Assembly (NCBI RefSeq): GCF_050920415.1 | Contig: NZ_CP169309.1 | DNA: 64,000 nt | Strand: one strand, 5' to 3' | DNA from: Escherichia coli | Lineage (GTDB): Bacteria; Pseudomonadota; Gammaproteobacteria; Enterobacterales; Enterobacteriaceae | Shown here: positions 42,284 through 43,123 of the stretch, in pieces | How positions within the stretch are numbered: the stretch's first letter is position 1 | Layout: each line of letters opens with the position of its first letter | Program-made: the position numbers and the translations under genes | Notes under the pieces: model-generated | The model's database searches: none | What the model saw: the letters and a program-made list of their open reading frames with translations, nothing else | Told to the model about the DNA's origin: nothing

Positions 42284-42367
42284 TCAATATTTATTGATGA
42301 TATATACGCAAGCTACAAAACTTGCACAGTATGTTAATACTTCCAACCAGTCGAATAGCTCTTTCAT
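42284..42367 (-). CDS. mini-ORF array member 10 (27 aa hydrophobic peptide)
   Basis: MKELFDWLEVLTYCASFVACVYIINKY; AGGGTAAACA RBS. Confidence 0.4.
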   Translation of the reverse strand: MKELFDWLEVLTYCASFVACVYIINKY

Positions 42368-42377
42368 TGTTTACCCT

Positions 42378-42449
42378 TTACATAATCGAAAGCGCCCAGG
42401 TAATAAGGACGATAGCCAAAACCATGCAGATAAAATCTGACTCTCTCAT
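42378..42449 (-). CDS. mini-ORF array member 9 (23 aa hydrophobic peptide)
   Basis: MRESDFICMVLAIVLITWALSIM; AAGGTGGA RBS. Confidence 0.4.
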   Translation of the reverse strand: MRESDFICMVLAIVLITWALSIM

Positions 42450-42463
42450 ATTGTCCACCTTGT

Positions 42464-42532
42464 TTACGCGAAGAAAACAATAACAGCTAACAGCGTGCAT
42501 ATAGCCATAATTAAGAAATCACTATCAGACAT
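42464..42532 (-). CDS. mini-ORF array member 8 (22 aa hydrophobic peptide)
   Basis: MSDSDFLIMAICTLLAVIVFFA; GGGAG RBS; start overlaps member 7 stop. Confidence 0.35.
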   Translation of the reverse strand: MSDSDFLIMAICTLLAVIVFFA

Positions 42533-42599
42533 TGATAATCACTCCCACGATAATTAACGCTGCTATACATACGAACAATACAGCTTCGATAACATCCAT
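42525..42599 (-). CDS. mini-ORF array member 7 (24 aa hydrophobic peptide)
   Basis: MDVIEAVLFVCIAALIIVGVIINV; AGGTGA RBS. Confidence 0.4.
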   Translation of the reverse strand: MDVIEAVLFVCIAALIIVGVIINV

Positions 42600-42607
42600 T
42601 CGCTCAC

Positions 42608-42676
42608 CTATTGAGTTAGCGCGGTCATGGTAAGAACAATCGCAACGATCAGGAAAAAGAAATCAAGCCATTTCAT
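42608..42676 (-). CDS. mini-ORF array member 6 (22 aa hydrophobic peptide)
   Basis: MKWLDFFFLIVAIVLTMTALTQ; ATGA overlap with member 5 stop. Confidence 0.4.
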   Translation of the reverse strand: MKWLDFFFLIVAIVLTMTALTQ

Positions 42677-42753
42677 TTTTTAAACTCCCGATAAACATCT
42701 ACGGCAATCACTGTAATAACAGCCACCAGCAATAGCATTTCATATGCGTTCAT
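42673..42753 (-). CDS. mini-ORF array member 5 (26 aa hydrophobic peptide)
   Basis: MNAYEMLLLVAVITVIAVDVYREFKK; AGGTGA RBS. Confidence 0.4.
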   Translation of the reverse strand: MNAYEMLLLVAVITVIAVDVYREFKK

Positions 42754-42761
42754 GCTTTCAC

Positions 42762-42836
42762 CTATACAACGTTATTCCACCAGAAATAGATAATGACTGC
42801 GACCAACGACCACCAGATGAGATCGTAAATGTTCAT
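42762..42836 (-). CDS. mini-ORF array member 4 (24 aa hydrophobic peptide)
   Basis: MNIYDLIWWSLVAVIIYFWWNNVV; weak RBS, likely coupled. Confidence 0.35.
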   Translation of the reverse strand: MNIYDLIWWSLVAVIIYFWWNNVV

Positions 42837-42848
42837 GATTAAATACCG

Positions 42849-42923
42849 TCAGCTCTCAATGAATATCATGATCGCCAGCCATACAGCGACGCAGGCAGAA
42901 AGAACAATAAGCGGATCAATCAT
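42849..42923 (-). CDS. mini-ORF array member 3 (24 aa hydrophobic peptide)
   Basis: MIDPLIVLSACVAVWLAIMIFIES; GGGTGG RBS. Confidence 0.4.
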   Translation of the reverse strand: MIDPLIVLSACVAVWLAIMIFIES

Positions 42924-42935
42924 ATTGCCACCCAT

Positions 42936-43031
42936 CTAATATTTGCTCATTACGGTTATAAGCACGGCGATAACGAAGCCAACCAGAAATATAGATATAC
43001 CTATTAATCCGGCGATGATGCTTTCGTCCAT
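42936..43031 (-). CDS. mini-ORF array member 2 (31 aa hydrophobic peptide)
   Basis: MDESIIAGLIGISIFLVGFVIAVLITVMSKY; AGGA RBS. Confidence 0.4.
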   Translation of the reverse strand: MDESIIAGLIGISIFLVGFVIAVLITVMSKY

Positions 43032-43033
43032 AA

Positions 43034-43123
43034 CTAATCCTGCATAGACATAACCACCAGAAACAAGCAAAGGATGAATCCAGCCGCCATCCCACCGATG
43101 AAAGTTAGTATTGATGCGATCAT
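43034..43123 (-). CDS. mini-ORF array member 1 (29 aa hydrophobic peptide)
   Basis: MIASILTFIGGMAAGFILCLFLVVMSMQD; GAGG RBS; ATG 2 nt after stop of HExxH gene. Confidence 0.4.
   Translation of the reverse strand: MIASILTFIGGMAAGFILCLFLVVMSMQD

Follow-up and report, generated by a model that had tools for sequence, protein, structure and literature searches.

What fills the 852 nucleotides (nt) that lie between a gene for a small protein with an HExxH motif and the gene for the small terminase subunit (TerS) of an Escherichia coli prophage, when no open reading frame (ORF) of ordinary length is to be found there? The locus is within a 64,000-nt stretch of E. coli DNA (contig NZ_CP169309.1 of assembly GCF_050920415.1), referred to here as the window, and the interval extends, on the minus strand, from the stop of the HExxH gene (43126-43656, 176 amino acids (aa)) to the start of the TerS gene (41788-42273). 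Its longest ORF, on either strand, is 59 aa from a GTG start, so that none reaches 60 codons, and it is tiled by ten mini-ORFs on the minus strand. The original prediction, made from the letters of the sequence, had pointed to both features, and all ten of its consecutive ATG frames of 22-31 codons, between 42284 and 43123, are present where it placed them. The evidence presented below argues that the frames are microgenes for single-helix membrane peptides, and that they come and go as units in related phages.

Ten consecutive frames and their conservation

The frames are tightly packed and well supplied with Shine-Dalgarno (SD) sequences. Successive frames are separated by 2-14 nt or overlap by 4 or 8 nt (in order 2, 12, 12, 8, -4 as ATGA, 8, -8, 14 and 10 nt, with 10 nt then left before TerS), and nine of the ten have an SD-like core, in keeping with what had been described. 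The energy of pairing with the anti-SD averages -5.25 kcal/mol at the ten starts; for the strand's 249 other ATGs it is -2.41 kcal/mol (Mann-Whitney p = 2e-4). That such a run was improbable by chance had been asserted on inspection and can be given numbers: the minus strand has nine ATG-initiated ORFs of at least 20 aa that pass a strict hydrophobicity cut-off and the plus strand has none, whereas 2000 shuffles that preserve dinucleotides average 0.79 and never exceed 4. The tenth microgene, rich in Trp and Tyr, misses the cut-off. With the same detector, no comparable run is present elsewhere in the window or in phage lambda. At 39.6% GC, the array region is poorer in these bases than the window (46.8%).

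A comparison that bears directly on coding is with 54 related loci from GenBank phages and IMG/VR. In all of them the gap between the HExxH and TerS genes is 318-1154 nt, and it holds 3-13 mini-ORFs of like design that cover a median of 91% of it; in two additional loci, which are divergent, there are 7 and 2. Sorting the 503 copies gives about 18 real peptide families, which follow a colinear order and vary in presence or absence, with F00, F01, F02 and F03 in 50-54 of the 54 loci and the other families in 2-46. One further cluster, F13, was an out-of-frame artefact overlapping F00 and was discarded. Pooled over families, the Nei-Gojobori ratio of nonsynonymous to synonymous polymorphism (pN/pS) is 0.30 in frame, whereas shifting the frame gives 0.88 and 1.27; for the flanking TerS and HExxH genes it is 0.17 and 0.08. 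Variable columns are distributed over the three codon positions as 140/98/235 (chi-square p = 3e-14). A comparison of frames against nucleotides across related prophages had been called for beforehand, and it is the reading frames, not merely the nucleotide sequence, that turn out to be conserved. The claim that these are real coding units for hydrophobic single-helix peptides is thus upheld by frames kept across the 54 loci. Judged by these comparisons, the members of the array are protein-coding genes under moderate purifying selection, each of them individually dispensable.

In the direction of transcription the array opens, 2 nt past the HExxH stop, with microgene 1 (43034-43123; family F11; 29 aa, MIASILTFIGGMAAGFILCLFLVVMSMQD), whose SD is GAGG (-5.9 kcal/mol). 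Microgene 2 (42936-43031; F04; 31 aa, MDESIIAGLIGISIFLVGFVIAVLITVMSKY) has counterparts in 46 of the 54 loci, with 29 alleles and a C-terminal half that is mosaic. For microgene 3 (42849-42923; F02; 24 aa, MIDPLIVLSACVAVWLAIMIFIES), present in 51 loci with a pN/pS of 0.28, an upstream ATG at 42935 would give 28 aa; that ATG is not kept in relatives. Microgene 4 (42762-42836; F05; 24 aa, MNIYDLIWWSLVAVIIYFWWNNVV; 43 copies in the 54 loci) has the weakest SD of the ten (-3.4 kcal/mol) and a pN/pS of 0.56, and two decayed F05 copies occur among the relatives. Microgene 5 (42673-42753; F01; 26 aa, MNAYEMLLLVAVITVIAVDVYREFKK; 52 loci, pN/pS 0.24) shares the ATGA overlap with microgene 6 (42608-42676; F03; 22 aa, MKWLDFFFLIVAIVLTMTALTQ; 50 loci), the family with a pN/pS of 0.12 and a paralog of F08 (z = 5-6). 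Microgene 7 (42525-42599; F06; 24 aa, MDVIEAVLFVCIAALIIVGVIINV; 39 loci, pN/pS 0.35) overlaps by 8 nt microgene 8 (42464-42532; F07; 22 aa, MSDSDFLIMAICTLLAVIVFFA; 35 loci, pN/pS 0.30), the start of which is lost or the gene truncated in five relatives. Microgene 9 (42378-42449; F08b; 23 aa, MRESDFICMVLAIVLITWALSIM), paralogous to F08a and F03, has the SD AAGGTGG (-7.0 kcal/mol); an in-frame ATG further upstream, at 42500, would give 40 aa, though it lacks that SD and would overlap microgene 8. Last is microgene 10 (42284-42367; F00; 27 aa, MKELFDWLEVLTYCASFVACVYIINKY), whose stop is 10 nt before the TerS start; its family is present in all 54 loci and is identical in the two most divergent loci checked.

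Two features of related loci stand apart from the microgenes themselves. In L016, L022, L030, L031 and L055 (at about 3835-4000) there is an extra ORF between the last microgene and TerS, of about 47-50 aa and with an acidic, soluble product (e.g. MNDEELKIADEIRKALDSAENNETIYLSEQEVEKMMNEFKLRFGKDD). In L003 (3394-3463), and at homologous positions in about eight loci, F06 and F07 are missing from their place between F03 and F00, which is taken by some 68 nt of non-coding sequence with a small hairpin (GGACGCGCATTTTATGCGCTTCC), possibly the scar of a deletion or a regulatory element.

The products share one design. Among 204 distinct peptides, 90% carry an acidic residue (Asp or Glu) in their first eight positions. 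The mean charge is -1.2 for the N-terminal segment and +0.6 for the C-terminal one, and the uncharged core, with a median of 18 residues, combines high hydrophobicity with a low hydrophobic moment. By these properties the predicted products are transmembrane helices, not amphipathic peptides. GxxxG or small-xxx-small motifs occur in F04, F09, F10, F11 and F14 and are not enriched (9 versus 8.4 expected, p = 0.48). Size and hydrophobic span (22-31 aa, core median 18 aa), together with the marks of genuine genes (SD energy above that of control ATGs, and a pN/pS of 0.30 versus about 1 out of frame), place the peptides in the class of small single-pass membrane proteins. In the coat proteins of phages Pf3 and M13, translocation of acidic N-tails is driven by the membrane potential, and because of this precedent and the positive-inside rule the peptides are predicted to insert in the inner membrane N-out/C-in without a signal peptide.

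Exchange of single genes

The unit of variation is the individual gene. About 10 nt upstream of each ATG, the SD included, travel with the downstream gene whatever precedes it, and several families are paralogous or mosaic (F03/F08a/F08b, F09/F14, F01/F20, F05/F19 and C-terminal variants of F04). The DNA itself has just short repeats at the level of the junctions, with no tandem repeat structure. One such gene is F11. Between ORF137 and ORF138 of the virulent myovirus rV5, a 95-nt gap without annotation contains a homolog of it (29 codons, MIASILTFMGGVAFGFIVCLFIVIMSMRG; L007 1519-1608, equivalent to about 96254-96343 of DQ832317), and about 90 other Vequintavirus records have one as well, mostly without an annotated feature. 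In three mEp021-like loci the F11 coding sequence (CDS) has 94-97% nucleotide identity to that of rV5 over exactly 90 nt, with flanks (40 nt on each side) that are only about 30% identical. The motif CGAGGCTGA precedes the F11 gene and forms its 3' end in both types of phage, and the rV5 gene is flanked by GCGAGGCTGA repeats. The occurrence of CGAGGCTGA at both gene ends in both phage types suggests that F11 was exchanged by recombination at the SD-stop-start junction. Taken together, the comparison of loci shows that microgenes are gained, lost and exchanged as single-gene cassettes.

Their distribution is otherwise narrow. By tblastn of 50,697 phage records there is no homolog outside the mEp021-like clade and the rV5 group; a degenerate F00 pattern applied to IMG/VR matches only the mEp021-like clade; and F12 (47 aa) has just 27 close relatives in a database of 5.8 billion protein clusters, with no homolog there outside the same two groups. 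Only two of the ten peptides, microgene 2 being one of them, are in a collection of 15 billion proteins. The impression that the element was undescribed has been borne out so far as databases and literature were searched. The peptide families have nothing significant in PHROGs, NCBIfam, PADLOC or Pfam (for nine of the ten peptides no NCBIfam match at E up to 0.1, and no PHROG match below E = 0.05), and Rfam, at the gathering score or E up to 1, gives no antisense RNA family for the array; in the window as a whole its matches are host small RNAs (sRNAs) elsewhere and a sub-threshold S15-leader match regarded as chance. No paper was found that describes tandem small membrane-protein genes in phages, these peptide sequences or the mEp021 array; papers on actinobacteriophages report scattered membrane-protein genes only, and the array is not mentioned in the paper on the phage group concerned (PMC11893012). 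Small membrane proteins themselves are known, and a survey of intergenic small ORFs in Enterobacteriaceae found conserved ones to be abundant and mostly hydrophobic or transmembrane (PMC11188072); no earlier description was found of a phage late operon with as many as 13 different transmembrane microgenes in tandem.

Annotation has treated the array unevenly. The mEp021 reference record has no CDS in it, and other mEp021-like GenBank records, annotated with Phanotate, have 4-7, some with starts extended across the neighboring microgene in another frame. The array so exposes a blind spot of annotation. Small membrane proteins are a recognized but poorly charted class, and phage genomes abound in short ORFs that lack annotation and whose reality is usually in doubt; here ten to thirteen in a row are shown by comparison alone to be under selection at the protein level, and they move as single cassettes between unrelated phages.

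The prophage and the neighboring genes

The prophage region of the window matches the mEp021-like temperate coliphages MagusPhagus, mEp010, mEp554, mEp044, mEp021, mEp515 and mEp013, and matching prophages are present in 34 of 5426 complete E. coli genomes. These siphoviruses form the 'mEpimmI' group, which is prevalent in the human gut, plates on E. coli K-12 and is genetically tractable (PMC11893012). Such K-12 phages make the role of phage transmembrane microproteins directly testable.

Upstream of the array, and in the same orientation, is the lysis cassette (43984-45135, minus strand), composed of genes for a 66-aa holin with two transmembrane domains (TMDs; 44935-45135), an endolysin whose N-terminus resembles a signal-arrest-release (SAR) domain (44442-44933) and an Rz-like spanin (43984-44454). 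The SAR-like N-terminus and the two-TMD holin of 66 aa imply, as far as sequence features can be relied on, a pinholin/SAR-endolysin lysis system like that of phage 21. Downstream are the gene for the Sf6-type TerS (Sf6_terminase family; PHROG 1482, E = 1.9e-51; PF20901 on an identical gene) and then those for the large terminase subunit (TerL) and the portal protein. A terminator-like hairpin (45160-45178) is located just upstream of the holin gene, and from there to TerS a simple consensus scan of the coding strand detected no promoter-like or terminator-like site, so the array would be part of the late transcript. Superinfection exclusion in lysogens, one of the roles first suggested for the peptides, is disfavored by the absence of a promoter-like site on that strand and by the position of the array inside the late lysis and packaging transcription unit.

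The HExxH gene (43126-43656) specifies a putative small zincin-like metallopeptidase core of about 125 aa followed by a basic tail. The protein belongs to PHROG 1365, a family with no assigned function, and has no Pfam match. A profile-free search of 1.84 billion representatives gave 150 homologs, mostly of about 120 aa, in which G51, H79, E80, H83 and E106 are invariant. In phages of the same architecture whose HExxH protein is 53% identical (L060, L061), the HExxH stop is 4 nt from TerS with no mini-ORFs nearby, and a further homolog is encoded upstream of a different TerS, again without an array. By these comparisons the array was inserted or expanded in the E. coli clade only, and the occurrence of HExxH homologs without arrays means that it has no functional tie to the peptidase.

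Several other features of the region deserve mention. No ORF in the gap of about 330 nt between the spanin and HExxH genes (43657-43983) is convincing; a terminator is annotated at the homologous place in the mEp021 record, but the simple scan of the window found none in this gap. In relatives, HNH endonuclease genes interrupt the lysis-packaging region at three different positions, separating the HExxH gene from the array, endolysin from spanin, or TerS from TerL (L006 999-1484; L058 2752-3273; L059 5250-5753), and a portal-region gene of L058 has an intein match in Pfam. The prophage early region has a coupled pair of small transmembrane ORFs (58291-58532, minus strand; 37 aa, MNIIKIAALSAGVAIAVAYLAASLYITVAIIKLITNM, and 39 aa, MKVGKDIVNVAFCVICFLFTVVFCGALAAVLAFIGKGVM) and a 30-aa transmembrane ORF (56469-56561, minus strand), which may be additional unannotated membrane microgenes. 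The host flank, with genes 99.9% identical to those of E. coli genomes, includes the sRNAs FnrS and McaS (2497-2614, minus strand, and 5992-6087, plus strand) and abgB/abgT (9600-10300), which mark the host as E. coli.

Possible roles and known counterparts

The explanation preferred here, to which about an even chance is given, is that the genes of the array are accessory, late and translationally coupled, and that their products are single-pass microproteins of the inner membrane with their site of action within it. On this explanation ten separate microgenes, each with its own ATG and SD, would be transcribed in a late polycistronic mRNA that runs through holin, SAR-type endolysin, spanin, HExxH, array, TerS and TerL onward, and their products would consequently be made late in lytic growth and not in the lysogen. 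Each would be one transmembrane helix, its uncharged core of some 18 residues preceded by an acidic N-tail of 2-8 residues and often followed by a basic C-terminus. Like bacterial small membrane proteins, the products would probably work inside the bilayer, their helices contacting those of larger membrane proteins. The array has a near-universal core (F00-F03) and a variable set. The targets are more likely to be host inner-membrane components, such as those for energization or transport or membrane-bound exclusion or defense proteins, than the phage's own holin, because array content varies while the holin is near-invariant and because one cassette is also in virulent myoviruses. In a phage with a pinholin and a SAR endolysin, any effect on membrane potential would also shift the timing of lysis.

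A further and rather speculative step, which on present evidence is improbable, is to regard the locus as an integrase-free cassette array driven by recombination, in which microhomology at the junctions would allow single genes of about 70-100 bp, each with an SD-stop-start junction of its own, to be inserted, duplicated, swapped or deleted, even between temperate siphoviruses and virulent myoviruses. This would yield diversified intramembrane inhibitors of host inner-membrane proteins, such as membrane-bound defense or exclusion effectors, transporters or the energized membrane. The array might also be a nursery for new transmembrane microproteins arising from T-rich sequence.

Some observations count against the preferred explanation. 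A more distant relative whose genome is laid out in the same way lacks the array, which is therefore dispensable for the basic lytic cycle. Selection on the microgenes is weaker than that on the flanking essential genes; about 7 of some 510 copies have decayed by start loss, frameshift or truncation; and the entry of intact hydrophobic ORFs only into the family alignments gives the pN/pS values a slight downward bias. Topology was derived from rules and the late transcript from simple consensus scans, and among the matches found there is no homolog of known function.

The accessory-gene explanation has to be set against others, of which modulation of the lysis clock is unlikely yet retains some weight. 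The peptides would build up in the inner membrane along with the pinholin and the SAR endolysin, and tune triggering by antiholin-like binding of the holin or by altering the membrane potential. The release of SAR endolysins depends on membrane potential, and accessory membrane proteins of lysis regions are commonly antiholins. The SAR-like N-terminus of the endolysin fits, and so does the fact that the array shares its orientation and transcription unit with the genes for holin, endolysin and spanin 1-2 kb upstream; the spanin gene, about 330 nt of gap and the HExxH gene nonetheless stand between the array and the lysis cassette. A 66-aa two-TMD holin already adjoins the endolysin, and the peptides match no PHROG holin family. 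Array content varies freely while the holin is near-invariant (Spearman r = 0.04 against holin distance in 36 loci, a comparison of low power as the holin hardly varies, with a mean distance of 6.5%), and the F11 cassette recurs at an unrelated position in rV5-like phages. When array content is compared with holin, endolysin, spanin, HExxH and TerS, the correlations are weak throughout (r = 0.04-0.27), and linkage accounts for them. There is no support for a dedicated partnership with the holin, with which array content does not co-vary, and one cassette is common to rV5-like phages.

It is less probable still that the peptides are membrane-active toxins like Ibs, ShoB or TisB of type I systems, depolarizing or permeabilizing the inner membrane late to shut down the host or trigger lysis. 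Their size and extreme hydrophobicity are those of Ibs-type toxins, their high mean hydrophobicity and low hydrophobic moment are in line with this, and Ibs and Ldr genes are also present in tandem copies in E. coli. Against it, no NCBIfam toxin family is matched at E up to 0.1 and no Rfam antisense sRNA family is present. Promoter-like sites in the region number four versus 10.6 expected, with fewer than chance on the opposite strand. The microgenes are operonic with strong SDs, unlike the tightly repressed genes of type I toxins, and ten or more distinct toxins would be redundant.

That the ORFs are mere filler is very improbable. They would be kept open only for ribosome cover, whether for coupling to TerS or avoidance of polarity, or the DNA would have a role in cis (pac, cos or structured RNA), with hydrophobicity a by-product of T-rich sequence. 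The region is AT-rich, T-rich sequence does give hydrophobic ORFs, and in the relative lacking the array HExxH is coupled directly to TerS. Shuffles that preserve composition fail, however, to reproduce the array, and the amino-acid constraint is specific to the frame by pN/pS, which already largely refutes this explanation. A single 90-nt gene has been transferred intact between unrelated phages, and the array has no Rfam match or notable repeats. In phages with an Sf6-type TerS the pac site is within the TerS gene. Finally, the proposal that the peptides are substrates or precursors for the HExxH metallopeptidase, in the manner of bacteriocins or of ribosomally synthesized and post-translationally modified peptides (RiPPs), has scarcely any probability left, for although the array adjoins and is co-oriented with the putative zincin-like peptidase gene and some RiPP clusters typically contain several precursor genes in tandem, the HExxH family is widespread without arrays (L060, L061 and L063 have none), the peptides have no common leader or cleavage motif, no modification or export genes are nearby, and in mEp013 an HNH gene splits the HExxH gene from the array.

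Among known systems, the psm-alpha operon of Staphylococcus aureus and aurABCD of aureocin A70 are alike in having four tandem genes of about 20-31 codons with their own SDs; their products are amphipathic or cationic and secreted, in contrast to the low hydrophobic moment and uncharged transmembrane cores here. The type I toxins IbsA-E, ShoB, TisB, LdrA-D and Hok are likewise tiny and very hydrophobic, some in tandem copies, but for the array no antisense RNA, promoter of its own or family match was found, and its genes are coupled in an operon and of many families. Genes VII, IX and VIII of the Ff filamentous phages are consecutive, overlapping and coupled, with single-helix proteins of 32-33 aa that lack a signal peptide and have acidic N-tails oriented N-out. 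The Ff products are virion coat proteins of a phage extruded through the membrane, whereas the array is that of a tailed siphovirus, with variable and individually dispensable genes.

The products most resemble the bacterial small inner-membrane proteins of Hemm, Storz and colleagues (AcrZ, MgtS, MgrB, PmrR and YohP), which have at most 50 aa, one transmembrane helix and their own SD, are overlooked by gene callers and are presumed to bind larger membrane proteins. Those are encoded by scattered, individually regulated single chromosomal genes with no sequence relationship to the present ones, in contrast to 3-13 unrelated or paralogous microgenes placed head to tail in one phage late operon and varying like cassettes. 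In location the closest counterpart is the lambdoid accessory hot spot between lysis genes and terminase, home for instance to lambda bor. Morons, which the prophage expresses, come with a promoter and a terminator of their own, and by consensus scan alone neither signal was detected within or flanking the array on the coding strand. Yet the position is the same as that of the hot spot, content likewise varies among close relatives, and exchange is at short conserved gene-boundary junctions, in the array an SD-stop-start motif such as CGAGGCTGATTATG; what distinguishes the array is that its cargo consists exclusively of microgenes.

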